This document shows, one piece after another, positions 8,383 through 37,895 of a stretch of 64,000 bases of DNA. Position 1 is the first letter of the stretch; each line of letters begins with the position of its first letter. The stretch lies in the sequence record ON184125. One strand, 5' to 3'. The position numbers and the translations under genes are program-made. Origin of the DNA: Escherichia phage PC3. Under the pieces are notes generated by a model, which was not told where the DNA came from, made no database searches, and saw only the letters and a program-made list of their open reading frames with translations.

Positions 8383-8406
8383 GTCAATACGAAATAAAGG
8401 CATATA

Positions 8407-9976: not shown

Positions 9977-9990
9977 AAAAGACTTTACTC

Positions 9991-10015
9991 TTCAATAATG
10001 ATGCACTATTATAGT
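9991..10015 (+). promoter_or_regulatory. promoter-like element (TTCAATAA box + TATTAT/TATAGT -10-like)
   Basis: TTCAATAA at 9991 followed 11-13 nt later by TATTATAGT; member of recurring motif class (see findings). Confidence 0.45.
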
Positions 10016-10085
10016 TCACATAGGGCGGCAACACACCGCCGAATGAAAAGTGAAACGCACCAACTACATTATGAGGAATTACATC

Positions 10086-10574
10086 ATGGCTACTACCAAA
10101 ACTCTGATCACCAACGGCACCATCTCTTTCGAACTGAACACCGAAGTTGCTAAAGTTGAAATGTTCCGCATCGCTCAGGCAGCTGGCTTCACTGGTGGTA
10201 AAACTTCCTTCATGAACCTGCTGAACGGTAAAGTGAAATCGACAAACGGCTTCACCCTGGTAGAGCAGGTTGTGGTTGATAAAGCTGTGGTTGCTAAGAC
10301 TGCCGACAAAGTTGGTATGCTGAAAAACCTGGGTCACGACATCCACATTGTCGAAGCAAACACCGAAACTTACGGCACCATCGTAGTCGGTAAAGGTCGC
10401 ATCCAGCTGAACCCGCTGAACAACGGTTCCTTCTCTGTGATGGTCTTCCCTAAGAAAGGCTACGCAAACGAAGACATCGTGAAAGCGGCTGGTGGTGAAG
10501 CAAAAGCTCAGTACGTCAAAATGGGTAAACTGAGCGCCGACGCAGTTGAAGCTCTGGTGAGCAAACTGGCCTAA
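10086..10574 (+). CDS. hypothetical protein (162 aa) with strongly biased codon usage suggesting high expression
   Basis: MATTKTLITNGT...; near-exclusive use of CTG, GGT, AAC, GAA, ATC, CGC-type codons; own promoter-like box and terminators on both sides. Confidence 0.75.
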   Translation: MATTKTLITNGTISFELNTEVAKVEMFRIAQAAGFTGGKTSFMNLLNGKVKSTNGFTLVEQVVVDKAVVAKTADKVGMLKNLGHDIHIVEANTETYGTIVVGKGRIQLNPLNNGSFSVMVFPKKGYANEDIVKAAGGEAKAQYVKMGKLSADAVEALVSKLA

Positions 10575-10588
10575 GCCAGACGCATAAC

Positions 10589-10621
10589 AGGGGAGGCAAC
10601 TCCCCTCCCATTCAGATTTTT
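10589..10621 (+). terminator. rho-independent terminator
   Basis: AGGGGAG-gcaa-CTCCCCT hairpin with downstream TTTTT. Confidence 0.6.
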
Positions 10622-10635
10622 GGTAGGAGATTACC

Positions 10636-10824
10636 ATGTCCCTCGCAGTCATCCAAGCCTCAGCAGGCACTCTCTGGGTTGCCGACCGCATTCCGAACAA
10701 AGTCTTCCCTCAGTTCCAAGAGGAACTCGAGCAGGTGATGTTGGCAGTCTTGGAAAAATACGGGTACGACGCCGAAGTTCGTACGTCCTTCAAAGAAGTT
10801 ATGCCAGTGGTGGTAGCAAGATGA
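10636..10824 (+). CDS. hypothetical protein
   Basis: 62 aa, SD GGAG upstream. Confidence 0.5.
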   Translation: MSLAVIQASAGTLWVADRIPNKVFPQFQEELEQVMLAVLEKYGYDAEVRTSFKEVMPVVVAR

Positions 10825-11162
10825 ACCAGATCGATATCAAGGTTGAATGGTTCGCGAACAAACGATCTTATTATGCGTTCATATACGCCATAGAATGTTG
10901 TCAGAAACTTCAGAATCTCGCGAATAAGGGATACACATTCATTGACCAATATTCTAATGTTCGGAAGAACTGGGAGATTGAGATCGACGGCTCAGAGTCA
11001 TGTGTACTCCTCGACAGAACATGTTTCGCTGGTGGGGAATGGGTTGAAACTCCAGAAGGGAATAAGATCTGGTGTACCAAGAAAGCCGTTGACAGCTTCT
11101 TGAGACACATCAGATGCATACCACCTTCTAATTTGAAGACTGCTTTGTCCCACGTTTCATAG
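10821..11162 (+). CDS. hypothetical protein
   Basis: 113 aa from ATG overlapping previous stop (ATGA); track ORF 10620 trimmed to Met 68. Confidence 0.5.
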   Translation: MNQIDIKVEWFANKRSYYAFIYAIECCQKLQNLANKGYTFIDQYSNVRKNWEIEIDGSESCVLLDRTCFAGGEWVETPEGNKIWCTKKAVDSFLRHIRCIPPSNLKTALSHVS

Positions 11163-11184
11163 TATAATTCTGTTCCTCGAGTAG

Positions 11185-11202
11185 TTCACTTTCACTTTCA
11201 CT
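11185..11202 (+). repeat. tandem hexamer (TTCACT)x3
   Basis: TTCACTTTCACTTTCACT directly upstream of an SD-sequestering hairpin AAATACCTC...GAGGTATTT (11205-11235). Confidence 0.6.
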
Positions 11203-11239
11203 TTAAATACCTCTGCATTCATTGTGGAGGTATTTTCTT

Positions 11240-12034
11240 ATGGCCATTCTAAAACTTGGCAACCGTGGCACTGAAGTGAAGGCACTCCAGGATAGCCTCA
11301 ACAAAATCGGCTTCACCCTCGTCGCTGATGGTATCTTTGGCAAGGCAACAGAGAACGCCGTCAAGACTGTTCAGGCGGGTGCGGGGCTTGTCATTGATGG
11401 TATCGTGGGTCCAAAGACCTCCTATGCTATTCGCAACGCCGGAGACGCCCATCAGGATCATCTAACTGAGTCAGACCTGATTGATGCTGCTAACGATCTG
11501 GGTGTTGACCTTGCCTCTGTCAAGGCGGTGAATCAGGTTGAGTCGCGCGGCACGGGCTTCACCAAGTCAGGTAAGATCAAGACATTATTTGAGCGCCACA
11601 TCATGTATAAGAAGCTGATGGCGAAGTTCGGACAGGCTCGGGCGAATGCCATGGGGCATATGTACCCGACGTTGGTCAACCCTTCTGCAGGCGGGTACAC
11701 GGGCGGCGACGCGGAGTTGGATCGACTTCATGCGGCCATCAACATCGATGAGGATTGTGCGTACGAGAGCGCCTCTTACGGTCTCTTCCAGATCATGGGA
11801 TTCAACTGCCAGGTCTGTGGATATGCCAACGCCAAGGAGATGTTCAACGACTTCCTGACAGGAGAACGTGCTCATTTGATGGCATTCGTGAAGTTCATCA
11901 AGGCCGACGCCAAGCTCTGGCAGGCTCTGAAGGACAAGAACTGGTCTGAATTTGCGCGGCGCTATAATGGTCCAGCGTATGCCAAGAACCAGTACGACAA
12001 GAAGCTCGCAGCAGCATACAAGAGTTTCAGTTAA
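11240..12034 (+). CDS. endolysin: N-terminal peptidoglycan-binding domain + DUF3380-type N-acetylmuramidase
   Basis: 264 aa from ATG (track ORF starts at TTG 11222); LKLGNRGTEVKALQDSLNKIGF...DGIFGKAT PG_binding_1-like repeat; C-terminal ESASYGLFQIMGFN motif typical of DUF3380 muramidases. Confidence 0.8.
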   Translation: MAILKLGNRGTEVKALQDSLNKIGFTLVADGIFGKATENAVKTVQAGAGLVIDGIVGPKTSYAIRNAGDAHQDHLTESDLIDAANDLGVDLASVKAVNQVESRGTGFTKSGKIKTLFERHIMYKKLMAKFGQARANAMGHMYPTLVNPSAGGYTGGDAELDRLHAAINIDEDCAYESASYGLFQIMGFNCQVCGYANAKEMFNDFLTGERAHLMAFVKFIKADAKLWQALKDKNWSEFARRYNGPAYAKNQYDKKLAAAYKSFS

Positions 12035-12037
12035 CTC

Positions 12038-12062
12038 AAAGGCCGGAAACGGCCTTTTCTTT
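12038..12062 (+). terminator. rho-independent terminator
   Basis: AGGCCG-gaaa-CGGCCT followed by TTTTCTTT. Confidence 0.7.
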
Positions 12063-12136
12063 ATCCAATCCTCAGGTATGCTGGGGTTGTCACCTTAATT
12101 AGAGGTGATGACACCCTGAGATATAGGAAGGTTCCC

Positions 12137-12979
12137 ATGCAATCTGCCACCAAAGTTGTAAGTAAGAAGCCAGCGGGCAAGACCAAGTCAGCACGTAAGA
12201 AAGAGACAATCCAGAAAGAAGATGACTGGATGAAGTTCTCTAAAGGTGACTTCAGAATCGCTCCGTTCAATGGCCTCTCAGAAAATCAGAACCTCGCGTA
12301 TCAATCTGCTCTTGAAGAAAACCTCACCATCGCAATCGGTCCGGCAGGCACAGGTAAATCGTATTGTGGTGCCTCAGCCGCCGCCAAGCTCCTGATCGAT
12401 AAAGTGGTCAGTAAGATCGTCATCACGCGCTCTCCGCTGCCAACAGGCCAGACTGCAGGCTTCCGCCCTGGCGACACATACGAAAAACTGATGCCATATC
12501 TGATGCCCCTGATTCAGACACTGAAGAAGGTGCTGAAGACTGACACAGGCAGCGACGGTTTCTTCAACTATCTGTGGGAGAAGCGGATCATTGAGATCCA
12601 GGATCTGGAGACCATCAAGGGGATGACCTTCGACGACACCTTCCTGATCATTGAAGAAGCGCAGGAATGTGATATGGAGCAGCTGAAGAACCTACTGACC
12701 CGCGCATCCGACTCGACTTACATCTTTGTCAACGGTGACATCAAACAGTCCAACAAGCGCCTGCGCGACAGCGCCCTTGAAAAGTACGTCAGTTCCTTCC
12801 GCGACTTCAACGCCAAGCTGGAGGCCGGAACCCTGAAGATCGATGGTGTTGGCGTCGGTGATGAGTACCCTGAATGGGTTCAGCCGTTCAGTATCATCGA
12901 GTTCGACAAGTCTGACCGCAACGGGCGCGGTGACTTCACCCGCCTGATGCTGGAAGTCAACGATCTGTACGACATTTAA
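12137..12979 (+). CDS. phoH: PhoH-like ATPase
   Basis: 280 aa; Walker A GPAGTGKS, typical PhoH-family organisation. Confidence 0.8.
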   Translation: MQSATKVVSKKPAGKTKSARKKETIQKEDDWMKFSKGDFRIAPFNGLSENQNLAYQSALEENLTIAIGPAGTGKSYCGASAAAKLLIDKVVSKIVITRSPLPTGQTAGFRPGDTYEKLMPYLMPLIQTLKKVLKTDTGSDGFFNYLWEKRIIEIQDLETIKGMTFDDTFLIIEEAQECDMEQLKNLLTRASDSTYIFVNGDIKQSNKRLRDSALEKYVSSFRDFNAKLEAGTLKIDGVGVGDEYPEWVQPFSIIEFDKSDRNGRGDFTRLMLEVNDLYDI

Positions 12980-13005
12980 GTAACTCGCCAACCCTCCCCG
13001 CCGCC

Positions 13006-13031
13006 TTCAATCTACGAGGGCGGCGTATAAT
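13006..13031 (+). promoter_or_regulatory. promoter-like element TTCAAT-N14-TATAAT overlapping a GC hairpin
   Basis: CGCCGCC-ttcaatctacgag-GGCGGCG then TATAAT; TTCAAT lies in the loop. Confidence 0.45.
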
Positions 13032-13062
13032 AAAACCTGCGTAAACAAACCCGAGGAACACC

Positions 13063-15345
13063 ATGATTAACGTTATAAAACGTGACGGATCTTCTGTCCC
13101 ATTTGATATTGAGAAACTACACGCAGTCGTAGACCGCGCCTGTGATGGCCTGTCTGGTGTGTCAATGTCAGAGGTGATCGCTGCATCGAAGATTCAGTTC
13201 ACCGACAACATGAGAACAGATCGCATTCAGGATATCCTCATCCAGGCTGCGGCTTCACTGATCTCTGTAGACAAACCCAATTACCAGTATGTGGCTGCTC
13301 GTCTGAAGTCGTATGATCTGCGCAAGGCTGTCTACGGTCAGTACAAGCCGCCTCACCTGCTGGACATCTTCGTCAAGAACATCAAACAGCGCGTGTATGA
13401 TCGTGAGTTCCTTGATCTCTACACGACCGAAGAGTTCAACGAGCTGAACGATGTCATCAATCACAAACGCGATAAGAACTTCACGTGGGCGGCCATGGGT
13501 CAGCTGACTGAGAAGTACCTGTTGCGCGACCGTTCCAAGAAAGACAGCAAGATCTTCTACGAAACCCCTCAGGTCATGTACATGGGCATCGCCATGGCGT
13601 TGTTCTCTAACTGGGACAAAGCCAGCCGCCTGGAGATGGTGAAAAAGTTCTATGAATATGCCAGCACAGGCAAGTTCAGTCTTCCCACCCCGATTATGGC
13701 AGGTGTTCGTACTCCTACCCGTCAGTTCAGTTCCTGTGTGTTAATCAAGACTAATGACACCCTGAACTCTATCAACGCAACAGCCAAGACCATCGTTGAC
13801 TATGTGTCCAAACGTGCGGGTATCGGCTTCGATGTCGGGGTAATCCGTGGGATTGGTAGTCCTATTCGCGGCGGAGAGATGGTTCACACAGGCCTGATCC
13901 CGTTCATCAAGTATCTCACTGGGGCACTCAAATCGTGCTCTCAGGGCGGCATTCGTGGTGGTGCAGCAACAGCGTACATCCCTCTGTGGCATTACCAGTT
14001 CGATGACGTCGTTGTTCTGAAGAACAACCGTGGTACTGAAGAAAACCGCGAACGCCGTATCGACTATGGCATTCAGATCAACCGCGTGATGTTTGAGCGC
14101 CTTGTTGCCAAGCAGCCTCTGTATCTGTTCGACCCGAAAGACAACCGCGAAATGTATGAAGCATACTTCGCTGACGTTGACAAGTTCCGTACTCTGTATG
14201 AGAACATGATCAAGGCCGCCGATGCCGGTTTGGTTCGTGCTAAAAAGTTGCAGGCAGAAGAGGTGTTCCAGATGCTGTTAGACCAGCGTTCAGACACAGG
14301 CCGCATCTACATCGCGTTTGTCGATCACATGAATGAATACAGTCCATTCAACCTAGACACGATTTATTCTTCAAATCTTTGTTTAGAAATCGCCCTGCCG
14401 ACCCGTGAGTTTGAGCAGTACAACGATGAAAACGGGCGCGTGGCTCTGTGCACCCTGGCTTCCTTCAACCTGACGGCGTTCGAAGATCCTACGGAAATGG
14501 AAGACGTGGCGTTCGTGTTGGTATCTGCGCTGGACATGCTGTTGGAATATCAGGACTATCCAGCGATTCAGGCTCGTAAAGCTGTTGAAGACTATCGTCC
14601 TCTGGGTGTTGGTATCGTGAACGTGGCTCACTTCTTGGCCAAGAACTTCACGGGCTATGGCTCACCAGCTGGTCTTGAAATGCTGGATGCGTGGATGGCA
14701 CACCTACACTTCTATCTGGTCAAGGCTTCCAACCGCCTGGCTATGAAGTTCGGGGCGTGTAAACGCGGAACCATCCACAATAATGGGCAGGTCACCGCCG
14801 ACCTTCAGCCGCTTCCACTTGATATCCTACCAAATGGCAAGAAGCCAGAAGGGATGGCATACGGGCTGGATTGGGATGGGTTGAAGGATAATCTGAAGAC
14901 CTATGGTATCCGCAACGCCACCCTGCTGGCCGTAGCCCCTACCGAAAGCTCCTCACAGGTCCTCAACGCAACGAACGGTATTGAGCCACCGAAGGGCTTG
15001 GTGAGCATCAAGGGTAGCAAGGACGGCACTTATAAGCAGGTCGTCCCGGACGTTGAGACCCTTGGACCGATGTATGACCTCAAGTGGGACCTGGACTGTA
15101 TTGAGTACCTGAAGACCGCTGCTGTCATCCAGCGCTGGGTTGACCAGTCCATCAGTACCAACACGTGGTATGACCCAGAGAAGTACCCTGACAGCAAGAT
15201 CCCTCGCGCCAAGATGATGCAGGATATCCTGTCGTTCTATATGTGGGGTGGCAAGACTCTGTATTACAACACAAACAAGGACGCCAAGGAAGACGAAGAG
15301 CTGAAACAGGCTGAGGAAACTCAGTGCGACAGCTGTGTTGTATAA
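13063..15345 (+). CDS. nrdA: ribonucleotide reductase large subunit (class Ia NrdA)
   Basis: 760 aa; ATP-cone-like N-terminus (VIKRDGSSVPFDIEKL), conserved NLCLEI active-site segment, C-terminal CDSCVV redox tail. Confidence 0.95.
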   Translation: MINVIKRDGSSVPFDIEKLHAVVDRACDGLSGVSMSEVIAASKIQFTDNMRTDRIQDILIQAAASLISVDKPNYQYVAARLKSYDLRKAVYGQYKPPHLLDIFVKNIKQRVYDREFLDLYTTEEFNELNDVINHKRDKNFTWAAMGQLTEKYLLRDRSKKDSKIFYETPQVMYMGIAMALFSNWDKASRLEMVKKFYEYASTGKFSLPTPIMAGVRTPTRQFSSCVLIKTNDTLNSINATAKTIVDYVSKRAGIGFDVGVIRGIGSPIRGGEMVHTGLIPFIKYLTGALKSCSQGGIRGGAATAYIPLWHYQFDDVVVLKNNRGTEENRERRIDYGIQINRVMFERLVAKQPLYLFDPKDNREMYEAYFADVDKFRTLYENMIKAADAGLVRAKKLQAEEVFQMLLDQRSDTGRIYIAFVDHMNEYSPFNLDTIYSSNLCLEIALPTREFEQYNDENGRVALCTLASFNLTAFEDPTEMEDVAFVLVSALDMLLEYQDYPAIQARKAVEDYRPLGVGIVNVAHFLAKNFTGYGSPAGLEMLDAWMAHLHFYLVKASNRLAMKFGACKRGTIHNNGQVTADLQPLPLDILPNGKKPEGMAYGLDWDGLKDNLKTYGIRNATLLAVAPTESSSQVLNATNGIEPPKGLVSIKGSKDGTYKQVVPDVETLGPMYDLKWDLDCIEYLKTAAVIQRWVDQSISTNTWYDPEKYPDSKIPRAKMMQDILSFYMWGGKTLYYNTNKDAKEDEELKQAEETQCDSCVV

Positions 15346-15376
15346 ATTGGTCTAAACCTACTACCGTTATATCATC

Positions 15377-15396
15377 AGGGGTGAGAGATCACCCCT
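15377..15396 (+). other. intergenic hairpin flanked by direct repeat ATCATCAGG
   Basis: AGGGGTGA-gaga-TCACCCCT perfect 8 bp stem between nrdA and the next ORF; no T-run. Confidence 0.6.
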
Positions 15397-15414
15397 ATTC
15401 ATCAGGAGTTCTAT

Positions 15415-15708
15415 ATGTTCCAAACGTTATTGTTAGTCCCTGGCCAACCAGGTATCTTGCTCGAACACAACAGCAAAATGGAAGCGGAGAATGTTCTCCG
15501 CAACGTGAAGGTGGCCACTGCTTGGCACAACGGCGGCGAAGTCACGGCTATCCCGTTGAATTACACGGATCCAATGGATACTGTGAACCGTACTCACATC
15601 CTTCTAGACCTTAGCAAATTACCTGCAGACAAACGCCAGGATTTTGTTGTTAACATCAAGAATTACATCACCACTGAACAGATCAAACTCCACGAAGGCA
15701 AGGCATAA
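15415..15708 (+). CDS. hypothetical protein
   Basis: 97 aa between nrdA and nrdB. Confidence 0.5.
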   Translation: MFQTLLLVPGQPGILLEHNSKMEAENVLRNVKVATAWHNGGEVTAIPLNYTDPMDTVNRTHILLDLSKLPADKRQDFVVNIKNYITTEQIKLHEGKA

Positions 15709-15709
15709 C

Positions 15710-16813
15710 ATGAGCGAACAGAAACAATTCTCCGTATTCGACCCAAGCTCGGACAACACTGGTCTACCGTTCTTCGGTGACCCAGTGAGCATCCAGCGTT
15801 ACGATGTCGTGGCCTGGCCATTCGTACAGAAGTGGTATGAGAAAGGTCTCAGCCAGTTCTGGCGCCCTGAAGAGGTGGACATCACCAAGGACAAGGCAGA
15901 CTTCGCTACTCTGAACGAAGCAGAGAAACATGTCTACTTCAGCAACCTGAAGCGCCAGACCATGCTGGACTCTATCCAGGGTGCGGCACCGTTCGAGGCG
16001 TTTGGTCCATGGGCGTCTACCCCTGAAATGCAGTTTGCTGTCCTTGAATGGACGCGCCAGGAAGCCATTCACTCTTTATCATACACCCACATTTTGCGCA
16101 ACACTGTGAACGATCCAGGTATCGTGTTTGACCACGTACTGGATGTTGTGGAGATCGTGGACTGTGCTCACCAGATCAGTGTGTACTACGATGACATGGT
16201 ACAGTACAGTGGCATGCGTATGGCCGGACGCATCTTCACCCGAGAAGATCTGATGAATGCCAAACGCGCATTCTGGCGTGCTCTGTTTGCTGCCAACACA
16301 CTGGAAGGTATCCGCTTCTACGTGTCCTTTGCATGCTCTTGGGCATTCACACAGTTCCAGAAGAAAATGGAAGGCAATGCCAAAATCATTCGACAGATCG
16401 CCCGTGATGAGCAGGATCACCTGATCCTGACCCAGACGCTGCTAAACCGCCTGCCTGGTATGGACCCCGACTTTGCAATCATCCGTGAGGAACTGCGTGG
16501 TGAGATGACCCAGATGTTCCTGGACGTGGTCCATCAGGAGAAGGAGTGGGCGAACTACCTATTCAAAGACGGTTCCATCCTGGGGCTGAACGCCAAGATC
16601 CTTCATCAGATGGTAGACTGGCTGGCAACCCACCGGATGGGCGCTATCGGGCACCCATATCCCGGTGAACCTCGCAAGGAGAACCCAGTCCCATGGATTA
16701 ATGACTGGCTAGATAATAAGGCAATGCAGTACGCGTTGCAGGAAGCGGAAGCTCCTGATTATCTGATGGGTGTACTGACTGGTTCGGTATCCGATGGCCT
16801 CAAATTCGCTTAA
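15710..16813 (+). CDS. nrdB: ribonucleotide reductase small subunit (NrdB)
   Basis: 367 aa from Met 23 of track ORF 15644; diiron-ligand-like EEAIHS and E...H motifs; directly downstream of nrdA. Confidence 0.9.
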   Translation: MSEQKQFSVFDPSSDNTGLPFFGDPVSIQRYDVVAWPFVQKWYEKGLSQFWRPEEVDITKDKADFATLNEAEKHVYFSNLKRQTMLDSIQGAAPFEAFGPWASTPEMQFAVLEWTRQEAIHSLSYTHILRNTVNDPGIVFDHVLDVVEIVDCAHQISVYYDDMVQYSGMRMAGRIFTREDLMNAKRAFWRALFAANTLEGIRFYVSFACSWAFTQFQKKMEGNAKIIRQIARDEQDHLILTQTLLNRLPGMDPDFAIIREELRGEMTQMFLDVVHQEKEWANYLFKDGSILGLNAKILHQMVDWLATHRMGAIGHPYPGEPRKENPVPWINDWLDNKAMQYALQEAEAPDYLMGVLTGSVSDGLKFA

Positions 16814-16822
16814 AGGTGAGAA

Positions 16823-17047
16823 ATGATTACGATCTATTCCAAACAAGGTTGCGCTCAGTGTGTAACAGCCGAAAATCTGTGCAAAATGAAAGGGCTGGAG
16901 CACAAGATCCTCAAGCTGGACAAAGATTACCGGCTGGAAGAACTTCAGCAGTTGACGGGTAAGCCGCGCGTGTCGATGCCTGTAATCGTCCTCGCTGACC
17001 AGACCGTGACCGACGTTAATGGACTCGCCGCCAGCCTTAAACGCTGA
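16823..17047 (+). CDS. glutaredoxin-like redoxin (NrdH/NrdC-type)
   Basis: 74 aa with CAQC active-site-like motif immediately after nrdB. Confidence 0.7.
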   Translation: MITIYSKQGCAQCVTAENLCKMKGLEHKILKLDKDYRLEELQQLTGKPRVSMPVIVLADQTVTDVNGLAASLKR

Positions 17048-17055
17048 CAAGCCAA

Positions 17056-17080
17056 AGCCCCTCAATGAGGGGCTTTACTT
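17056..17080 (+). terminator. rho-independent terminator
   Basis: AGCCCCTC-aat-GAGGGGCT followed by TTACTTTT. Confidence 0.7.
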
Positions 17081-17152
17081 TTGAAACACCCTCCACTATA
17101 CTTCCCAGTAATTCATTGGCATTCGCCACAAATTGAAAGCGGGAACTATATC

Positions 17153-17614
17153 ATGACAAACAAAGTACTCACCAACCCACTGCACAACTTCGGTTACATT
17201 CAACTCCCTCTGGTGATCGACACCCTGTACGCCGACGACAAAGAAGAGATCTGCTGGTCACCCACCGCACTGATTGAACGCGAAATCTTCAAGTCTGTTG
17301 TTGATGTCATGTTCCGTATCGGTCGCAATGGACCTCTGGTCTACCTCGGCAAGGTGACTGAGTTGAAGACAAGCCACAACGAACGCTTCCTTCGTATCGA
17401 TACAACGGGGTGCTCTCATCAGGACTTCAACACATTGCGCAATTATGTTCTGGTCAACCGCCCGGTCAGTCAACACCGCCCGTATCTGACTTCAATGCAC
17501 ATCGACAATTTCATCACCGACGTGCACCTCCGCGCCGAAACCCTCCATGAAGAGGAAACAGGCCGAGCTATCGACACAGTCTTAAATATGGTTGTGATCA
17601 CCCTGGCGGAGTAG
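17153..17614 (+). CDS. hypothetical protein
   Basis: 153 aa from ATG preceded by GGGAACTATATC (track ORF 17081 trimmed to Met 25). Confidence 0.6.
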   Translation: MTNKVLTNPLHNFGYIQLPLVIDTLYADDKEEICWSPTALIEREIFKSVVDVMFRIGRNGPLVYLGKVTELKTSHNERFLRIDTTGCSHQDFNTLRNYVLVNRPVSQHRPYLTSMHIDNFITDVHLRAETLHEEETGRAIDTVLNMVVITLAE

Positions 17615-17619
17615 TCCTC

Positions 17620-17970
17620 ATGCAAGATTACAAAGAGTTGAGAATGCAGCTGACAGTCCCCATACCAGACAAAGGTTTATACCAAAACCTGCATCATCTG
17701 ATGTCTGAAGGGCATATGCTGCCTTTGCGGTCTGAGGATGGATCTCAAATCGGTTATGCCACCAGTTGCGTGGTCTACGACAAACCAGGAGACGAAGAGC
17801 GCGGACAGGTCAGTGTGGGTTCCAGATTTGTGTTGAACAAGAAGCTGGAGGGATCAGTGGTTGACGTCAGGCCGATGATTATCCTCTACCAATTCAACGG
17901 TAAAGAGATGTTCAGGTTATTGAGCCACTTCATGTTAGTCGTGGCTCCGGCATTCAGGACGAAATTCTAA
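17620..17970 (+). CDS. hypothetical protein
   Basis: 116 aa, SD GGAG upstream. Confidence 0.5.
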   Translation: MQDYKELRMQLTVPIPDKGLYQNLHHLMSEGHMLPLRSEDGSQIGYATSCVVYDKPGDEERGQVSVGSRFVLNKKLEGSVVDVRPMIILYQFNGKEMFRLLSHFMLVVAPAFRTKF

Positions 17971-27725: not shown

Positions 27726-27739
27726 CTCCACTGTGAGAG

Positions 27740-28021: not shown

Positions 28022-28025
28022 CGTA

Positions 28026-28096: not shown

Positions 28097-28210
28097 TTTT
28101 CAATAAAAAGTAGTTTACATCTATGAAAATGCAGTATATTATGTTCTCACTACACAGTCAGAACAACAATATGCCGCGGATACGGTCTTAATAACGAAAG
28201 GGTTTTTATT

Positions 28211-29047: not shown

Positions 29048-29065
29048 ATTTAAGTTCAGAAACTG

Positions 29066-29100
29066 TTCAATAGATGAAGGGGTTGCTATAATAGCAGCTC
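29066..29100 (+). promoter_or_regulatory. promoter-like element TTCAAT-N15-TATAAT within hairpin, upstream of nucleotide-modification operon
   Basis: TTCAATAG...GGGGTTGC-TATAATA-GCAGCTCC (stem with G-U pairs) then TTTTGTTT. Confidence 0.5.
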
Positions 29101-29122
29101 CTTTTGTTTATCGGAGCAGTTT

Positions 29123-29782
29123 ATGTCCTACTCCCTGAAGGGGCTGATGAAGCGCCCCGTCCACACATTCTTTAAACCACCCGTCGTAAAGGGGATCTAC
29201 CCAGCACGAGGGCAAATCTACTACGTCAAAGGCTCCAATGGTAGCGGTAAATCCACTGTGCCGTCTCAGCTGGCGGAGAGGGATCCTCAGGCGTATGTCG
29301 TGACCCATAACGGCAAGGTAATGCTGACTGTCTGTCCTTCGTTCAACGTGGTCTGTATCGGTAAATATGACAAGTCGAAGTCCAAGGGGGTTGATTCCCT
29401 GAAGGACACTGAGCAGATGTTGTTCGCGTTGTCTATTGCTGACCAACCAGAATACTTGAAATATGATGTGATTTTCGAAGGTATCATTCCATCCACATTA
29501 TTGAGTTCTTGGATCCCCCGCCTGACACGCCCACCACGTGAATTGGTTGTGCTCTTTATGGACACTCCCCTTGAAACGTGTATCTCCCGCGTTAAATCAC
29601 GTAACGGCGGTGTGGACTTCAATGAAAGTCTGGTGGTCGAGAAGTGGGAGAGAGTTCATGACCATCGTCAACGACATAAAGACTTGTTCCCTACGGTAGC
29701 TGCGGGTATGATGAAGTCTCACGGCCTAACGGTAGACCAGGCTGTGATGGCATTCCTCTGTCGTGATTTTGGGAGTATCTGA
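29123..29782 (+). CDS. P-loop kinase, candidate 5-hydroxymethyl-dU DNA kinase-like
   Basis: 219 aa; Walker A GSNGSGKST near N-terminus; sits directly upstream of and overlapping the ThyA homolog. Confidence 0.55.
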   Translation: MSYSLKGLMKRPVHTFFKPPVVKGIYPARGQIYYVKGSNGSGKSTVPSQLAERDPQAYVVTHNGKVMLTVCPSFNVVCIGKYDKSKSKGVDSLKDTEQMLFALSIADQPEYLKYDVIFEGIIPSTLLSSWIPRLTRPPRELVVLFMDTPLETCISRVKSRNGGVDFNESLVVEKWERVHDHRQRHKDLFPTVAAGMMKSHGLTVDQAVMAFLCRDFGSI

Positions 29783-30828
29783 TGGAAATCAAAGCAATTA
29801 ACAACAATGACATGCTGAAGCAGGCTGTCTTGGCTATCCGTGAATTCGGGATCGAATCTGATCCTGGTAATGCTGAAATAAATACTGATAGCACCCGCTT
29901 CCTTGATGGCGTGACCATAACCGTCGCCGACATCCGTGACCGCTGGCTATCCGTTGAAGGTCGTAACTCATCGGCTATCGCTGCCATCGGCGAGACCTTC
30001 TGGGTTCTGTCCGGGCGCGATGACGTTCGCTTCCTGTCCCGCGTATTACCTCGCGCTGCTAACTTTTCGGATGATGGGGTAACATGGCGAGCTGCTTATG
30101 GTCCGCGTCTGTACGCCCATGGCCAGCTGGATAGCGTTATCAACCGCCTGCGCAAGAACCCAAACACTCGCCAGGCGTACCTCACCATCTATGACCCGGC
30201 TCTAGATTCGGATGCTGGTCTGGCGAAGTTCAGCGAGAGCGGCGAAGCAAAGACTAAGGACATGGTGTGTAACCTGGCTCTGTTGTTCGCCATCGTTGAA
30301 GGTCGTCTGAACCTGACGGTCATCAACCGCTCACAGGATGTTCTGTGGGGGATGAGTTCAATCAACTTCATTGAGTTCTCTATTCTTCAGGAAGTGATTG
30401 CTCGGGTGCTGGACGTTGACGTCGGTCAGTACAAGCTATTCTCTAACAATCTTCATTACTACAACAATGAAGTCAGCCAGAAGCAGCTTGGCAAGATTAC
30501 CAAAGACACAAAAGTCACTGGTGGTTTCATCAACTCCATGATTCACTTCACGAACGTGACCAACCAGAACCATATCCGCAATCTGTTCACTGGTGTGCTT
30601 CATCACTGTGATATCGGCAGCCCGTGGGAAACTGTGGTCGCCCACCTGAAGGAATATGATGCTGATCGTGGCCTGATTGTACAGATGGCGTACTGTCTGC
30701 ACTGCAAACTGAACGAAAAGCTCATTAACCTGGACCTGATTCAGGATCATGGCTTGAACACCGCGCTCACCCATTCTCCGGTTGACCGCAAGATCGTTGA
30801 TCCTAAGTTCCTGGAAGGTGTAGTATGA
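29782..30828 (+). CDS. thymidylate synthase family protein (possible pyrimidine hydroxymethylase)
   Basis: 348 aa with ThyA-like segments (YGPRLYAHGQLDSVINRLRKNPNTRQAYLTIYDP); longer than canonical ThyA. Confidence 0.7.
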   Translation: MEIKAINNNDMLKQAVLAIREFGIESDPGNAEINTDSTRFLDGVTITVADIRDRWLSVEGRNSSAIAAIGETFWVLSGRDDVRFLSRVLPRAANFSDDGVTWRAAYGPRLYAHGQLDSVINRLRKNPNTRQAYLTIYDPALDSDAGLAKFSESGEAKTKDMVCNLALLFAIVEGRLNLTVINRSQDVLWGMSSINFIEFSILQEVIARVLDVDVGQYKLFSNNLHYYNNEVSQKQLGKITKDTKVTGGFINSMIHFTNVTNQNHIRNLFTGVLHHCDIGSPWETVVAHLKEYDADRGLIVQMAYCLHCKLNEKLINLDLIQDHGLNTALTHSPVDRKIVDPKFLEGVV

Positions 30829-32487: not shown

Positions 32488-33557
32488 TGGACCGCATGCT
32501 GAAGGTTGCTAAGAAACACGATGACCAGGCTTCAGTGCTGTCCAAATCCGACGCTCTGGAACCGTCTATCATCTGTTCTACTGGTATTCCCCTGATCGAT
32601 ATCGCATGGTCTGGGCGTATTGACGGTGGTCTGATCTCCGGTATCAAGATGATGGTGGGTGATTCCCGTACCTTCAAAACGATGTTCGGTCTGGTGGACG
32701 TCAAGGCGTACATGGACAAGTTCCCTGATGCTATCTGCGTCTTTGCGGACTCAGAAAAGGGTGCCAACGCCGATTACTGGACCTCTATGGGCATTGACAT
32801 GGACCGCGTCCTGTACGTACCGATCGACAACGTTGAACAGACCAAGATCCGCTTGCTGCAGATCCTCCAGGAAGTCAAGAAAGGCGACCATGTTATAATC
32901 TTCATCGACTCTATCAGCCAACTACCCTCCACCAAGGAAGTTGAAGATGCGATCAAAGGGAACGACACTCAAGACATGACCCGCGCCCGTGCCCTTAACA
33001 GCTTCTGGCGTGTCATGACTCCCGAAATCAACAGCAAAAATCTCGTGTGTGTTTGGATCAACTCCTATTACGATGAGATCGGCAACCAATATGCCGAGCC
33101 TAACATCAAAGGCGGCAAACAGGGCTTCTTATCCTCCAACTTGATCTGGTTTATCACCCGTTCTCAGGTGAAGGAAGACAAAGATCTGCTGGGTTGGAAC
33201 TTCAACATAAGCATCATGAAAGGTCGCCATGTCAAAGAGAAAGCCAAGCTCCCTGTGACGGTACTGTACAACGGTGGTATTGATCGCTGGAGCGGCCTGC
33301 TTGAGATCGCTCGTGCTCTGGGTTATGTTGATATGCCGTCTTCCGGTTGGTATGTGCGTACAGCCAAGGGTGGTTTCGATCCTGAGAAGGAAAAGAAATA
33401 TCAGAAGCGTCAGATGGATGATGATTTCTGGTATCCGCTGCTGGAGAATGTCAACTTCGCCGATGACGTGAAGAAAATGTTCGGTGTTTCTAACGGTACT
33501 GTTATGCCTGCTAACATGCTGGAGCAAATGGACCATGTTATCAACACAAGCGAATAA
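32472..33557 (+). CDS. uvsX: RecA-like recombinase UvsX
   Basis: 361 aa; N-terminus and core (ISGIKMMVGDSRTFKTMFGL, VIIFIDSISQLPSTKEVEDA, TRARALNSFWRVMTP) align by eye with T4 UvsX. Confidence 0.9.
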   Translation: MASSLMDRMLKVAKKHDDQASVLSKSDALEPSIICSTGIPLIDIAWSGRIDGGLISGIKMMVGDSRTFKTMFGLVDVKAYMDKFPDAICVFADSEKGANADYWTSMGIDMDRVLYVPIDNVEQTKIRLLQILQEVKKGDHVIIFIDSISQLPSTKEVEDAIKGNDTQDMTRARALNSFWRVMTPEINSKNLVCVWINSYYDEIGNQYAEPNIKGGKQGFLSSNLIWFITRSQVKEDKDLLGWNFNISIMKGRHVKEKAKLPVTVLYNGGIDRWSGLLEIARALGYVDMPSSGWYVRTAKGGFDPEKEKKYQKRQMDDDFWYPLLENVNFADDVKKMFGVSNGTVMPANMLEQMDHVINTSE

Positions 33558-33864
33558 CAGTGGAGGGGGAGGAGACTCCCCCAATAACTACACAATCATC
33601 GACCCTGGTGCTGATCAGCTGGCGATCATCAAGATCACTTCTGGCAAATTCCGTGGTGTTCAATTCCGGTTCGGCAAGGTGGCCATCAACGAAGTGGACT
33701 GCGAACCCCGCCTGTCTTTCGTGACTGATATATTGAAGAAACCATTGCGTCTGATGTTTGTGAATTTGAAAGAAAATGACTTGTTCACTGAGGTGTCAGG
33801 GGATATCCTTGTAGACCTCATGCAGCGTAATGCTCAGGAATATAATAAATTTTTGGTGGGGTAA
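33535..33864 (+). CDS. possible small protein between uvsX and helicase (start uncertain)
   Basis: Open frame continuous to 33864; only upstream ATG (33535) overlaps uvsX and the hairpin would lie inside its 5' coding region. Confidence 0.3.
   Translation: MLSTQANNSGGGGDSPNNYTIIDPGADQLAIIKITSGKFRGVQFRFGKVAINEVDCEPRLSFVTDILKKPLRLMFVNLKENDLFTEVSGDILVDLMQRNAQEYNKFLVG
33565..33582 (+). other. hairpin immediately after uvsX stop
   Basis: GGGGGAG-gaga-CTCCCCC perfect 7 bp stem. Confidence 0.6.
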
Positions 33865-33871
33865 GTGGCCA

Positions 33872-35296
33872 ATGTTACTCGAATCTGTCGTGCTTTCACA
33901 GTTGATTTACAATGAAGATTACCAAAGAAAGATCCTGCCGTACCTGAAAGCCGATTATTTTGACAACGAAGGCGAAAAGGTCATCTTTGGTCTGATTGAC
34001 AGTTATACCTCAGAGTACAATGCCCGCCCGTCTGTCGAAGCACTATCTATAATTCTTGAACGGACAAAGCTGAACGAATATGTGTTTGACCAGGCGGTAT
34101 CTGCCCTGGAGAACATCAACGACAACACCTTCAATGAAGAGTGGCTGGCGAAGGAAACCGAGGCTTGGGCGCGACAAAAGGCCGTACACAACGCAATCAA
34201 GACCGCCGTTAACATCTACGGTGACGAGAAGCGCAAGGACGAGATGAACAACATCCCGACCATGTTGCAGGAAGCCCTGGCTATCCGGTTTGATTCATAT
34301 CTCGGTCACATCTATTGGGAGATGGCGGCAGAGCAGTATGACCACATGAACTCCAACGAGGCCAAGATCCCGTTCGCAGTTGAGATCTTCAATAAGGCGA
34401 CACGTGGTGGCGTTGGTAAGAAGACACTGAACATCGTAACAGGTGCGATCAACGCAGGTAAGACCACAACGCTGATTGACCTGACCGCAGGGTACTCGGA
34501 GCAGGGGCTGAACGTCTTTGTCTTCACCCTTGAAGTGGCCGAGAACGTCTGGCGACACCGTCTTGATGCCCGTATCATGCGTCGCGACTTTGAGTCTTTA
34601 GAGAAACTCACAAGGCACGAGTATATTGCAACGATAGAGAAGCTCCGCAGTCGCCAAGATGGTGCGCCCAAGGGTGATATCGTCATCAAGGAATATCCTT
34701 CCGGTACTGGACACACAGGTTTATTCCGCCGCGATATCCTTGAGTACATCCAGGCAACTGGTCGTGCTCCTGATGTTATCGTTATTGACTATCTTGGCGA
34801 AGCTGCTTCCTCGCGCCTGCCTGCCCACCTGATGCAGAACACGAACGTCTATTACACGTCTGTGGCTCGTGAGTTTCGTGCGCTGGGATTTGAGTTTGAT
34901 GTCCCTGTATGGACTGGTATGCAGTTCAATCGTGAGAATCAGAATAGCACTGATGGTGGAATCAGTGATTTGGCAGATGCTATCGGTATTCCGAAGGTGG
35001 CCGACTTCATCATGGCATTCTATGCTCCTGACGAACTGGCGGCGGTCAAGAAAGCCCGAGCCTCAATACTCAAGAACCGTTATGCCAACAAGCAGAAGCT
35101 GAAATCATTCCTGTTTGGTATGGACCAAGACAAACAGATCCTGTTTGACCTGGACTGGAATGAAGTTAAGAAGGACCTGACTGAGGCTGAGGCCAAATAT
35201 GTCGAAAACGTACACATCAAACATGACCTCAACAAGTCCGGAGCTGCTGCCAGCGATGAGCAGAAAGCCCAAACGGTCAATAATTGGAAATTCTAG
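33872..35296 (+). CDS. replicative DNA helicase (T4 gp41/DnaB-like)
   Basis: 474 aa from Met 15 of track ORF; Walker A GAINAGKTT, DnaB-like layout. Confidence 0.85.
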   Translation: MLLESVVLSQLIYNEDYQRKILPYLKADYFDNEGEKVIFGLIDSYTSEYNARPSVEALSIILERTKLNEYVFDQAVSALENINDNTFNEEWLAKETEAWARQKAVHNAIKTAVNIYGDEKRKDEMNNIPTMLQEALAIRFDSYLGHIYWEMAAEQYDHMNSNEAKIPFAVEIFNKATRGGVGKKTLNIVTGAINAGKTTTLIDLTAGYSEQGLNVFVFTLEVAENVWRHRLDARIMRRDFESLEKLTRHEYIATIEKLRSRQDGAPKGDIVIKEYPSGTGHTGLFRRDILEYIQATGRAPDVIVIDYLGEAASSRLPAHLMQNTNVYYTSVAREFRALGFEFDVPVWTGMQFNRENQNSTDGGISDLADAIGIPKVADFIMAFYAPDELAAVKKARASILKNRYANKQKLKSFLFGMDQDKQILFDLDWNEVKKDLTEAEAKYVENVHIKHDLNKSGAAASDEQKAQTVNNWKF

Positions 35297-35300
35297 GCAA

Positions 35301-35335
35301 TTCAATAAAGCGGGTCATAGGGTATAATTCTATGA
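35301..35335 (+). promoter_or_regulatory. promoter-like element TTCAAT-N16-TATAAT with TATAAT in palindrome TCATAG...CTATGA
   Basis: TTCAATAAAGCGGGTCATAGGGTATAATTCTATGA. Confidence 0.45.
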
Positions 35336-35360
35336 TCTGAATGTAAACCAGGAGCACATC

Positions 35361-35696
35361 ATGTCACACAATGATTTTATGGCTGGCCTGGTGCAGGCCG
35401 CCAAACAGGTGTGCCACACCAAACAAGCGATTGAGCTGAGTCCGGAGCAGACTCTGGAGTTCTTCAACAATCGTAAAATCTGGGAGGAATATGGAATTGG
35501 TATGATATGCCAAGAGGGTGAACTCGTACAGCTGGATCTACCGTCATTTCCCCTTCCAGTGCGCACCAACACAGTGGAATGGTATACGACGGAAGATGGT
35601 GTAGAGATCATCCCGAAGTTCCAGTATCACTCAATCGTAAACTTCTTTTTACGCCGTTGCGGGACTAATCTGATCCCACAAGGTATGAGATCTTAA
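35361..35696 (+). CDS. hypothetical protein
   Basis: 111 aa; AGGAGCACATCATG initiation region. Confidence 0.55.
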   Translation: MSHNDFMAGLVQAAKQVCHTKQAIELSPEQTLEFFNNRKIWEEYGIGMICQEGELVQLDLPSFPLPVRTNTVEWYTTEDGVEIIPKFQYHSIVNFFLRRCGTNLIPQGMRS

Positions 35697-35711
35697 CAAG
35701 AGGAACACCAA

Positions 35712-36026
35712 ATGTCTGTAGAACAAATCGGCTTTTATGTACTACCATCTGATCCTGAATCCCGTCGCAAGCTGATAGGTGCAATTGAAAACTGTCGTGC
35801 CGCCCAGGTCCGCATCAAGTCGGAACAGACTTTCATTACTGAGACTCTGGCCGAGCTGGCGAAAGACACGGGTATCAAGGCCAGCGACTTGCGCAAGGTT
35901 GTATCCGACCGCGCCAATGGAACTTACCATAAGACGATCGAAACGAGCGAGAAATATCAAGACTTATACGAGTCTCTATTCCCGAACGCCAAGCCCGATC
36001 GAGACCCGAATGTCAGTGGCGAATAA
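35712..36026 (+). CDS. hypothetical protein
   Basis: 104 aa, SD GAGGAA. Confidence 0.55.
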   Translation: MSVEQIGFYVLPSDPESRRKLIGAIENCRAAQVRIKSEQTFITETLAELAKDTGIKASDLRKVVSDRANGTYHKTIETSEKYQDLYESLFPNAKPDRDPNVSGE

Positions 36027-36044
36027 GTCAATCGAACACCAAGA

Positions 36045-36070
36045 AGCCCAGTCAAGTACTGGGCTTTTTA
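36045..36070 (+). terminator. rho-independent terminator
   Basis: AGCCCAGT-caagt-ACTGGGCT followed by TTTTTACTT. Confidence 0.7.
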
Positions 36071-36152
36071 CTTCAATAACTTTACTTTCAAGAAATAATC
36101 GCCTAATATTTAATCTGTATTGAAGAGTTACAACTACATCATGAGGCTGGAA

Positions 36153-37346
36153 ATGAACGTCAAAACATTCAATATTCCGATCGACAATGAAGGGTTGGTA
36201 GTTGAGCGACTGAAGAAGCTCGAGCGCACTGCCGAAAGGTTGGGTGTTCCGTTTCCGACTGTGACTTATGGTGAACCCTTCAAAACCCACACCCGCGACT
36301 TCACTGGTGAGATCATTACTCACTGGTGGAAACCTGTTACTCTTGAAGGCGAAGGCATTGACCGCCCCGTCTCTTATGGTGGCTGGAAGATCATCGGTCA
36401 GTTCAATCACGAATATCCAAAGGTTATTCTTAACCGCCTGTCCGACAACATCAATCCTGACTTCATCCGTCGCTTCGAGACAGAGAACGTCTCTTGGTGT
36501 CAGCATTGCAATCTAGCCATCCGTCGCAAGAACACGTATGTGATTGAAAATGAGGAAACGCATACCCAGATGCTGATTGGTAGCACCTGTATGCATCATT
36601 ATGTACCTCATCAGAAATCGCTTGACGCGATTATGTCTTACTATCTGGGGATCCAAGAGTTCTTCATGCCAGAAGAGGACGACCCAGAGGGTATATATCG
36701 CGTCCAAAATGAGCGCTTCACCGATACCCACAGTTACCTGCGCGCATGCTTCCAGGTGATGCTGGCAGGCGTGGATATCAAGTCTGAACTGTTTGACAAA
36801 GTACTGGGCTATGTCCGGTCTCACCAGAAACCAAAAGCAGGTTCCGATGAAGAGTATTTCGTAAACAAGGCACACGAATACCGTGAAGATGCCGAGTCGG
36901 AAATGTACCATATGAAGCTCTTCATCAGTGCGCTGTCCGAATCTAATGAGTTCAATGTTCGCCTGAAACGCATGTGTGAACCCGGCTATCACCTCATCAA
37001 GGATAACAACACAGTCCGCTGGGGTGCCAAGAAGTATTACGATTACATCCATCGTCCTCGTACTGACCGCAAGGCGGAGAACAAATGGGTGGGTGAAGTC
37101 GGTGAAATGCTGGAAGTGCAAGTCAGGTTCGACAAGCGCACCTTTCTCTTCTCCAATGAATATGGTGATAGTTACCTGTTTACTTTCAAAACAGCAGAAG
37201 GCAATACAATTACCTGGAAGACCTCTTATATGGATACAGAGTTCTTGCAGGGCGATATGATCATCCGTGGTCGTGTCAAAGAACTGACTGAGTACAACGG
37301 CGTTAAACAAACTCAGGTCACTAGAGCCAAATTGAGGAAATTATGA
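36153..37346 (+). CDS. hypothetical protein (about 398 aa)
   Basis: Start at ATG with GAGG 5 nt upstream (alternative ATG 36141); contains WCQHCN...STCMHH Cys/His cluster. Confidence 0.7.
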   Translation: MNVKTFNIPIDNEGLVVERLKKLERTAERLGVPFPTVTYGEPFKTHTRDFTGEIITHWWKPVTLEGEGIDRPVSYGGWKIIGQFNHEYPKVILNRLSDNINPDFIRRFETENVSWCQHCNLAIRRKNTYVIENEETHTQMLIGSTCMHHYVPHQKSLDAIMSYYLGIQEFFMPEEDDPEGIYRVQNERFTDTHSYLRACFQVMLAGVDIKSELFDKVLGYVRSHQKPKAGSDEEYFVNKAHEYREDAESEMYHMKLFISALSESNEFNVRLKRMCEPGYHLIKDNNTVRWGAKKYYDYIHRPRTDRKAENKWVGEVGEMLEVQVRFDKRTFLFSNEYGDSYLFTFKTAEGNTITWKTSYMDTEFLQGDMIIRGRVKELTEYNGVKQTQVTRAKLRKL

Positions 37347-37459
37347 ATTTGATTGAGTTTGTTCTGAAGTCGTTCGCCTTTGGTCTGATAGCATGTGGGA
37401 TGATTACAGCTATGCTTCTCATCATAGCCCTGGTCATCCCCTTTAAGAGGAAACGCTGA
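37343..37459 (+). CDS. possible small membrane peptide (38 aa)
   Basis: MNLIEFVLKSFAFGLIACGMITAMLLIIALVIPFKRKR*, ATGA overlap with upstream stop and TGATG overlap with downstream start. Confidence 0.35.
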   Translation: MNLIEFVLKSFAFGLIACGMITAMLLIIALVIPFKRKR

Positions 37460-37671
37460 TGGAATGTTCATGCGGAGGGCAGGGCACAAGTGCTTACCTG
37501 CCATTCACCACTGTGAAGGAAGCCGAAGCCGCCGGATTTGCCGTAAGCAAGGCTCCCTGTGTAATCGCCACGAAGGATTGCCCGTGCTGTAAGAGGCACT
37601 CTCAGGACGTCTTCTACGCCCCTGATGCGCGTCCGGCTACGGTCAACCTACTCTCACTGATGAGGAAGTGA
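37459..37671 (+). CDS. small Cys-rich protein
   Basis: 70 aa with CSCGG and CPCC clusters. Confidence 0.45.
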   Translation: MECSCGGQGTSAYLPFTTVKEAEAAGFAVSKAPCVIATKDCPCCKRHSQDVFYAPDARPATVNLLSLMRK

Positions 37672-37672
37672 C

Positions 37673-37894
37673 ATGCGCAAGTATTTCAATTGGCTGTTGG
37701 CAAGCCCCTGATGCGCTGAGATCCGTTGTCTAATCGATGCCATTGACGCCAAGGCTGTTTACAAAGCCCTCTCCCGACATCACAAGCGCTAGATTAATCG
37801 CACAGAGGCTCAGGCCGAAATTAAAAATCGTGAAGAAGTCCACAAGGCTCTGGGTTTCATAACAAATAATTCAATAAACTATTCACCCATATAA
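37673..37894 (+). pseudogene. possible decayed ORF: single reading frame interrupted by two in-frame stops
   Basis: Frame from ATG 37673 reads MRKYFNWLLASP-TGA-CAEIRCLIDAIDAKAVYKALSRHHKR-TAG-INRTEAQAEIKNREEVHKALGF... Confidence 0.25.
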
Positions 37895-37895
37895 T
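37870..37895 (+). promoter_or_regulatory. promoter-like element TTCAAT-N14-TATAAT
   Basis: TTCAATAAACTATTCACCCATATAAT about 28 nt upstream of ATG 37924. Confidence 0.5.

Follow-up and report, generated by a model that had tools for sequence, protein, structure and literature searches.

The DNA stretch analysed here, called the window throughout, comprises 64,000 nucleotides of Escherichia phage PC3 (sequence record ON184125) and carries repeated copies of a promoter-like module, in which a TTCAAT box is followed after 14 nucleotides by the hexamer TATAAT (TTCAAT-N14-TATAAT). The module is enriched over shuffled sequence, has a spacing optimum, is co-oriented with the genes that follow it, is conserved across genera, overlaps covarying RNA stems and precedes a characteristic set of genes. 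It is the already published motif of the phage family Ackermannviridae, to which the refinements reported here are incremental. From the sequence we infer promoter activity, a time of action and dependence on a factor: with moderate confidence, we take the copies to be a family-specific class of phage promoters of the middle type, in which a sigma-70 -10 element is combined with a separately read box.

Enrichment, spacing and conservation of the module

All genome-wide counts refer to the record of Escherichia phage PH4 (ON184126.1), in which coordinates equal window positions plus 64000. Window 12000-20000 (8 kb) is 100% identical to this record (taxonomy Ackermannviridae; Aglimvirinae). Positions 1-46000 match it exactly, and 46001-64000 differs at a single base, position 56266, which lies within a minus-strand gene and is T in the window and C in the record.

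Six exact TTCAAT-N12-16-TATAAT matches were found in the window, all on the plus strand, where 0.03 are expected from dinucleotide shuffles. Widening the spacer to N10-20 yielded no further exact copies in the window. A recurring TTCAAT/TATAAT module, as proposed in a preliminary description of this DNA, is therefore real. Five of the six sites listed there are exact (13006, 24064, 29066, 35301 and 37870). The sixth, 9991, is not an instance, since it reads TTCAAT-N10-TATTAT or N13-TATAGT and belongs to a TTTACT-N17-TATTAT class, and the exact intragenic site 22892 was absent from that list. The exact sites and two variants in the window are:

13006..13031, plus strand: N14-class promoter-like site TTCAAT-N14-TATAAT, exact match, 32 nt upstream of nrdA
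22892..22917, plus strand: N14-class site, exact match, within the coding sequence 22445-23035 and upstream of the gp33 operon
24064..24087, plus strand: promoter-like site TTCAAT-N12-TATAAT, exact match, upstream of gp32 (single-stranded DNA-binding protein)
29066..29092, plus strand: promoter-like site TTCAAT-N15-TATAAT, exact match, upstream of the 5-hmdU DNA kinase operon
35301..35328, plus strand: promoter-like site TTCAAT-N16-TATAAT, exact match, 51 nt upstream of gene 35379-35696
37870..37895, plus strand: N14-class site TTCAATAAA-N11-TATAAT, exact match, upstream of gene 37924-38265 and DNA ligase (38379-39803)
8383..8408, plus strand: N14-class variant GTCAAT-N14-TATAAT, position weight matrix (PWM) score 21.7, upstream of the primase region
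59350..59375, minus strand: N14-class variant TTCATT-N14-TATAAT, PWM score 24.2, co-oriented with a minus-strand gene block

Across the whole PH4 genome there are five exact N14 copies, three of them in the window, and exact copies also occur at N12, N15 and N16. When up to one mismatch was allowed, the spacing was sharply peaked at N14 (19 sites, 0.7 expected), with 5 sites each at N13 and N15; a separate small peak at N8-9 (5 sites at N8) corresponds to the other promoter class. The spacing of 12-16 nt given in the preliminary description is spanned by the exact sites, but as a range it hides the N14 optimum. As the GC content is lower in intergenic DNA (42.5%) than in the genome (48.8%), the shuffle control was redone on intergenic segments alone. 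At the same stringency, 14 intergenic N14 sites were found compared to 0.23 expected, and the maximum in 300 dinucleotide shuffles was 2.

Exact matches in the PH4 genome are always co-oriented with the gene that follows. Eight of them are intergenic, and from these the next start codon on the same strand is 29-76 nt away, in agreement with the upstream position described earlier; for the intragenic site 22892, this distance is 115 nt. The earlier remark that the spacing is too short for a -35/-10 pair and TTCAAT a poor -35 also holds, given 14 bp and a 3/6 match to TTGACA; the usable sigma-70 spacer is 16-18 bp, and 14 bp falls outside it. A scan with the sigma-70 consensus returned no N14-class site, and sigma-70-like matches overall did not exceed those in shuffles (27 compared to 21.6, and 23 compared to 22.9).

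Conservation was assessed in about 22 related genomes, in the regions around four genes. Between Ackermannviridae genera whose protein sequences share 55-78% identity, box and -10 show little or no variation, and the spacers change. At the nrdA site (13006), about 20 relatives from several genera, down to 68% protein identity, have both hexamers unchanged. Orthologues of the gp32 site (24064) have (T/C/A)TCAAT-N11-14-TATAAT, and those of 8383 have CTCAAT with TATAAT or TTATAA. At 29066, the box, N15 and the -10 are kept in all genera compared. The relatives have N15-16 at 35301, except for the most distant one (L074), which has N14. The site at 37870 is kept in the closer genera and in L062, with unrelated sequence in the others. 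The TATAAT of 22892 is made of synonymous positions (GGT-ATA-ATG, with the rare ATA codon) and is invariant in 15 distinct relatives, in which the neighbouring third positions vary and the box reads TTCAAT or TTCAAC. In the relatives, too, the motif recurs nearly always on the gene strand. When viral contigs were scanned for TTCAATAA-N12-TATAAT, the matches listed were nearly all solitary ones in unrelated contigs, at chance level, and thus uninformative on the distribution of the motif.

Three promoter-like classes and their genes

Listing all intergenic TTCAAT sequences, together with k-mer enrichment upstream of genes, yielded three motif classes, and these partition by gene function. Class 1, nTCAAT(A)-N14-TAT(A/T)AT, has about 20 sites in the genome and precedes primase, nrdA/nrdB, the gp33 operon, gp32, the 5-hmdU DNA kinase operon and DNA ligase. 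The operon behind 29066 is ordered 5-hmdU DNA kinase, thymidylate-synthase homologue, dUTPase, UvsX and helicase. DNA ligase domains were found in 38379-39803, and no Pfam family was found for gene 35379-35696.

Class 2, cTTTACT-N16-17-TATAnT, has sigma-70 geometry, and TTCAAT follows its -35 within the spacer (TTTACTTCTTCAATAA). T4 early promoters have a sequence similar to its -35, GTTTAC. The class is repeated as a whole module of promoter, leader of about 45 nt and ribosome-binding site. Its members include 9984-10012, 4665-4693, 17074 and 36081, and its genes encode small proteins without known family. Two sites show the arrangement in full:

9984..10012, plus strand: sigma-70-like promoter TTTACT-N17-TATTAT, with TTTACT at 9984, TTCAAT (9991-9996) in the spacer and inverted ATTGAA at 9972-9977
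4641..4693, plus strand: class 2 site, composed of TTCAAT, AAAA, a terminator GGGGC-loop-GCCCC, TTTACT (4665), TC, TTCAAT (4673), N9 and TATACT, then a conserved leader

The promoter at 9984-10012 is nearly invariant across genera. The arrangement at 4641-4693 is kept across genera as well; its loop changes freely and its stem shows the compensatory form GGGAC/GTCCC.

Class 3, CTAAATA(cccc)/TATAAATA, is a late-type motif that precedes genes for tail spikes, tail tube and prohead core. No other 7-mer is as enriched upstream of genes as CTAAATA, and the second family motif, CTAAATACCCC, stands at record positions 2621, 5455, 36294, 39491, 145385 and 155248.

Several features of class 2 were noted in passing. 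The leader after TTTACT-class promoters, about 45 nt of the form (TC)ATTCCATAAGCAGTACGACACCAACTTGAA-n-GAAGGAACTATATCATG (window 4694-4741; record 23676-23723 and 35186-35240), occurs three or four times in the genome and hardly varies between genera. At record 35157, a TTTACT-class module stands without an ATG. The TTTACT -35 of three promoters is bracketed by inverted boxes, ATTGAA-N12-13-TTCAAT (window 9972-9996; record 23638-23661 and 143509-143533), and other members have a direct TTCAATAA just upstream instead. The inverted pair has the look of an operator for a dimeric protein.

Some genes near class 1 sites could be named. The unnamed gene 29123-29782 encodes a 5-hmdU DNA kinase (PF18748, E = 4e-109) and adjoins the thymidylate-synthase homologue (region 29123-30828), a neighbourhood that fits, as would be expected, the thymidine-hypermodification pathway of the Ackermannviridae. 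An unnamed 81-aa protein (23571-23816) is a late-transcription coactivator of the gp33 type (PF16805, E = 9e-18), and the protein encoded beside it (23333-23578) contains a zinc-ribbon domain.

RNA stem-loops overlapping the promoter elements

Short G+C-rich inverted repeats overlap the promoter elements, and their sequence differs at every stem. At 24064, 29066, 35301 and 37870, TATAAT lies in the apical part of a stem-loop. Genome-wide, this holds for about 12 of 20 sites, but a T-run follows only about 5 of these 12 hairpins. The stem-loops in question, and one that belongs to class 3, are:

12999..13025, plus strand: stem-loop of 9 bp with the TTCAAT box in the loop, ending just before TATAAT; no T-run; 100% of cells paired
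24077..24094, plus strand: stem-loop CGGGGTA-taat-TACCCCG with the -10 in its apical part; weak T tail (CTTTG)
29076..29104, plus strand: canonical intrinsic terminator found by terminator scan, a 13-bp stem with G·U pairs and a T-run; TATAAT in the loop
35311..35339, plus strand: conserved stem-loop that encloses the -10; no T-run
37886-37902, plus strand: small stem CCCAT/ATGGG that brackets the -10 of the 37870 site
7983..8006, plus strand: terminator with the late-type CTAAATA in its loop, the same nesting in another promoter class

According to the preliminary description, most instances directly follow a terminator hairpin. This was not confirmed: the stems overlap the promoter elements, and 29076-29104 is the only module stem in the window that satisfies a strict terminator definition. 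A stem with a U-run overlaps the promoter at record sites 45978, 131193 and 134029 as well. Conserved stems without a clear U-run are present at 13006, 24064, 35301 and 37870.

Our first stem metric counted perfect Watson-Crick stems that tightly bracket the hexamer. It gave a mean stem length above that of all 1000 flank shuffles, but undercounted hairpins because many have G·U pairs or asymmetric loops, and it was replaced by minimum-free-energy folds and pair counts in alignments. At nrdA (alignment A1), four of the nine pairs show compensatory changes, and controls with slid positions are 40-65% paired. The stem at 35311-35339 (alignment A2) is 97% paired compared to 33-54% in slid controls, with three compensatory pairs and one G·U pair in 12 of 12 sequences; its fold is more stable in sense (-14.2 kcal/mol) than in antisense (-6.1 kcal/mol). 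For 29076-29104 (alignment A3), the values are 97% vs 35-74% paired and -20.4 vs -10.0 kcal/mol, with one compensatory pair and a G·U/A-U/G-C exchange at one position. The stem at 24077-24094 reads GCGGGGG/CTCCCGC in relatives L019 and L020 and is absent from L009-L018. Overall, the sense fold was more stable than the antisense fold at 15 of 20 sites (p = 0.044); where G·U pairs are abundant, the difference amounted to 8-10 kcal/mol. The persistent G·U pairs and the preference for sense folds point to the RNA of sense transcripts.

The distance from box to hairpin varies between 2 and 10 nt, whereas that from box to TATAAT is fixed at 14. Sites that have no hairpin, such as 22892 and record 51199 and 47275, still have both boxes at N14. 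With the hairpin variable in position or absent and the distance between box and -10 fixed, box and -10 form one coupled DNA element, on which the stems are superimposed as a second layer. Two other readings of this layout were rejected. The stems are not a DNA cruciform or protein operator, as their sequences all differ and a G·U pair is a C·A mismatch on the other strand. Nor is TTCAATAAA a -10-like element with a start at the hairpin, given the variable distance to the hairpin and the fixed one to TATAAT. No Rfam family reached the gathering threshold across the window.

A terminator-like hairpin at 3288-3317 also has CTAAATA in its loop. Together with 7983-8006, it indicates that the promoter-in-loop arrangement is not confined to the TTCAAT class.

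Two possible leader structures were observed next to class 1 sites. Downstream of the GTCAAT-N14-TATAAT variant (8409-8450), TTTTGCTCATT pairs with AATGAGCAAAA and covers the start codon of a small unannotated open reading frame (ORF; ATGAGCAAAATC...). The pairing in relatives is TTTGCCCATT / AATGGGCAAA, a compensatory change, and the structure may be a leader hairpin that sequesters the start codon. What the record annotates instead is a minus-strand ORF (8624-8824), which looks doubtful. Upstream of gp32 (24130-24160), a small conserved stem, AGCCC-TGAG-GGGCGG, lies about 20 nt before the start codon and gave no Rfam hit. Its loop and stem vary across genera (GCCCTGAGGGGC, GCCCGAAGGGGC, GCCCCCTGGGGC), and by analogy it may be the counterpart of the autoregulatory leader structure of T4 gene 32.

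Reading of the box and comparison with known systems

In the reading that we favour, host RNA polymerase with sigma-70 would recognise the perfect -10 hexamer, and the box near -30 would replace the -35 element. With the box only 14 bp from the -10, contact with sigma-70 region 4 is implausible in normal geometry; the reader of the box would most likely be a phage-encoded factor or a remodelled sigma. Such a middle class would switch on genes of replication, recombination, nucleotide metabolism and thymidine hypermodification together with the late coactivator gp33, after the TTTACT-N16-17-TATAnT class and before the CTAAATA late class with its gp55/gp33 system. The promoters would be packed into the same 30-40 bp as sense RNA stem-loops with a role in ending or stabilising the transcript from upstream. 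With a predicted start about 7 nt after the -10, within the 3' arm, the new transcript would not contain the hairpin.

This picture can be extended to an early-to-middle switch that would be analogous, not homologous, to sigma appropriation in T4, an extension that we find possible but doubtful. Here, a phage protein would read TTCAAT. At -30 it would substitute for the -35 contact and thereby activate the genes for replication, nucleotide metabolism and DNA hypermodification. The boxes of class 2, in the spacer or flanking the -35 (ATTGAA-N12-13-TTCAAT around TTTACT), could serve in repression and so shut off that class, and the nesting in hairpins might couple termination to the next initiation.

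A number of points weigh against a factor-dependent middle class. Three sites have conserved spacings of 12, 15 and 16, which a rigid contact between activator and sigma would not easily accommodate. TTCAAT is also present in the class 2 spacer and, in either orientation, upstream of class 2, so its role may be other than plain activation. Part of the AAA behind the box reflects the A-tract of adjacent hairpins, and a perfect TATAAT could by itself give factor-independent activity. No candidate factor was found, and the proteins encoded downstream of class 2 promoters belong to no known family. Finally, literature searches returned no transcript mapping, start sites or expression timing for the Ackermannviridae.

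The search for a reader with known relatives was negative. For MotA, phmmer --max against PH4 gave a best E of 0.9 and tblastn only noise; for AsiA, the best E was 0.33 by phmmer and 0.033 by tblastn, the latter inside the topoisomerase gene. Pfam hidden Markov models were applied to 127 PH4 proteins, out of 145 annotated with a length of 30-300 aa, the other 18 having a named product; no match to MotA_activ, MotCF, AsiA (E <= 0.01 for MotA/AsiA) or sigma-70 domains was found among those 127. The genome search for MotA/AsiA-like genes suggested in the preliminary description thus came out empty at the level of sequence similarity, which could miss a relative in fold alone. PH4_000064, a 'transcription factor' encoded outside the window (record 58821-59099; L003:8821-9099), found no support either way as the reader and was set aside as a generic HU/IHF-family protein (PF00216, E = 6e-30); SPO1 TF1 is a weaker match to it than bacterial HU/IHF. 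The fit of the module sites to the IHF consensus WATCAANNNNTTR is limited to a TCAA core. TTCAAT-N13-TAAGAT precedes this HU/IHF-family gene. Promoters of the sigma-32, sigma-S and sigma-28 types were rejected as well, as there is none among them whose consensus would match the two boxes together.

Three other explanations were considered. The sites might be factor-independent host promoters, used by unmodified sigma-70 from the start of infection through their perfect TATAAT, with TTCAAT as a weak, mis-spaced -35-like or UP-like element. We regard this as a serious but less likely alternative. In its favour, most sites have a -10 that matches the consensus perfectly, the above searches found no homologue of an activator or anti-sigma factor, conserved sites tolerate spacings of 12-16, and the box also occurs in class 2, where TTTACT already provides a -35. 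However, the sharp N14 optimum and the invariance across genera of a box that matches TTGACA at only 3/6 positions argue for a specific reader. The 14-bp spacer lies outside the usable 16-18 bp, and among the module sites a TGn extended -10 occurs at 29066 only.

Alternatively, TTCAATAAA and the hairpin with UAUAAU in its loop could act on the upstream mRNA, as an element of termination, processing or stability whose loop is recognised as RNA. The covariation of the stems with retained G·U pairs would fit this, as would the placing of about 12 of 20 hexamers in a stem-loop, the one canonical terminator and the pairing, at several sites, of the AAA after the box with the T-run. Yet the hairpin-free sites keep both boxes at N14, the TATAAT of nrdA lies outside its stem-loop, and the gp32 site of Kuttervirus-like relatives has lost the stem and kept box and -10. 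Loops are unusually large compared to the tetraloop terminators elsewhere in the genome, and the T-run is confined to about 5 of 12 hairpins. We consider an RNA element in place of a promoter improbable. Least probable is a true homologue of T4 MotA/AsiA acting at a diverged MotA box. It would agree with a box near -30 upstream of a sigma-70 -10, with downstream genes that match T4 middle genes, and with the T4-type late machinery (gp55, gp33, gp45) shared by PH4, but the box is unrelated to TGCTTtA, and phmmer --max, tblastn and Pfam, the last on the 127 proteins scanned, were all without a match. The T4 middle-type class proposed in the preliminary description is supported in part: the box near -30, the -10 and the gene set fit it, but the box is no MotA box, and neither MotA nor AsiA was detectable in these searches.

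Phages of the Ackermannviridae (ViI, CBA120, LIMEstone, Ag3 and relatives) are widely used in biocontrol and phage therapy, and the motif marks likely control points of their replication and DNA-hypermodification genes. If the box has a new reader, it would represent a second, independent solution to the problem solved by MotA/AsiA in T4, and would offer portable, infection-timed promoters for phage engineering.

The motif is said to go back to the 2012 genus proposal ('Viunalikevirus', the ViI-like phages, now Ackermannviridae). TTCAAT[N14]TATAAT and CTAAATAcCcc are quoted as 'two unique regulatory motifs' for EspM4VN, an Ag3-like phage of the Ackermannviridae (PMC7283392). By comparison with T4, the LIMEstone1 paper distinguishes promoters of early, middle and late class, without their sequences; the motif is absent from the genome papers on Ag3 and LIMEstone. 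Our module agrees with the published one in sequence, N14 spacing, phage family and partner motif (CTAAATAcCcc). The published statements are in-silico position lists, without spacing statistics, separation of the TTTACT class, partition of genes or covarying stems; the N14 optimum, this separation and partition, and the conserved overlap with RNA stems are what the present analysis adds.

Overlap of terminator and promoter is an established architecture in enterobacterial operon clusters (2019, PMC6735719). As there, a compact and conserved arrangement places the promoter elements of the downstream unit inside a stem-loop or terminator that belongs to the upstream unit. Unlike there, the arrangement recurs at many sites of one phage genome and in two promoter classes, with the -10 in the loop; most PH4 stems have no U-run and are at most putative terminators. 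Compared to canonical sigma-70 promoters (TTGACA-N16-18-TATAAT), the module has the same perfect TATAAT -10, but no -35 match at 16-18 bp, and in its place a conserved hexamer at 14 bp with a 3/6 match to TTGACA.

The T4 MotA box has the consensus (a/t)(a/t)(a/t)TGCTT(t/c)A and is centred at -30, with a sigma-70-type -10 (TAnnnT) following about 12±1 bp downstream and no usable -35. The PH4 box would span -32 to -27 if the hexamer is -12 to -7, and reads TTCAAT(A), without TGCTT. It lies 14 nt from the -10 when counted from the 6-mer (13 from TTCAATA), or 12, 15 and 16 nt at the three conserved sites, and there is no -35 at 16-18 bp. Apart from the different box (TTCAAT[A] vs TGCTTtA) and the lack of a detectable MotA/AsiA homologue, the PH4 class differs from T4 middle promoters in its spacing of 12 to 16 at some conserved sites. 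Like T4 middle promoters, however, it combines a box near -30, in place of a -35, with a -10 of the sigma-70 type; its sites precede genes of replication and nucleotide metabolism, which are middle or delayed-early in T4; and, as in T4, the class would stand between an early sigma-70-like class and a late class of the gp55 type.

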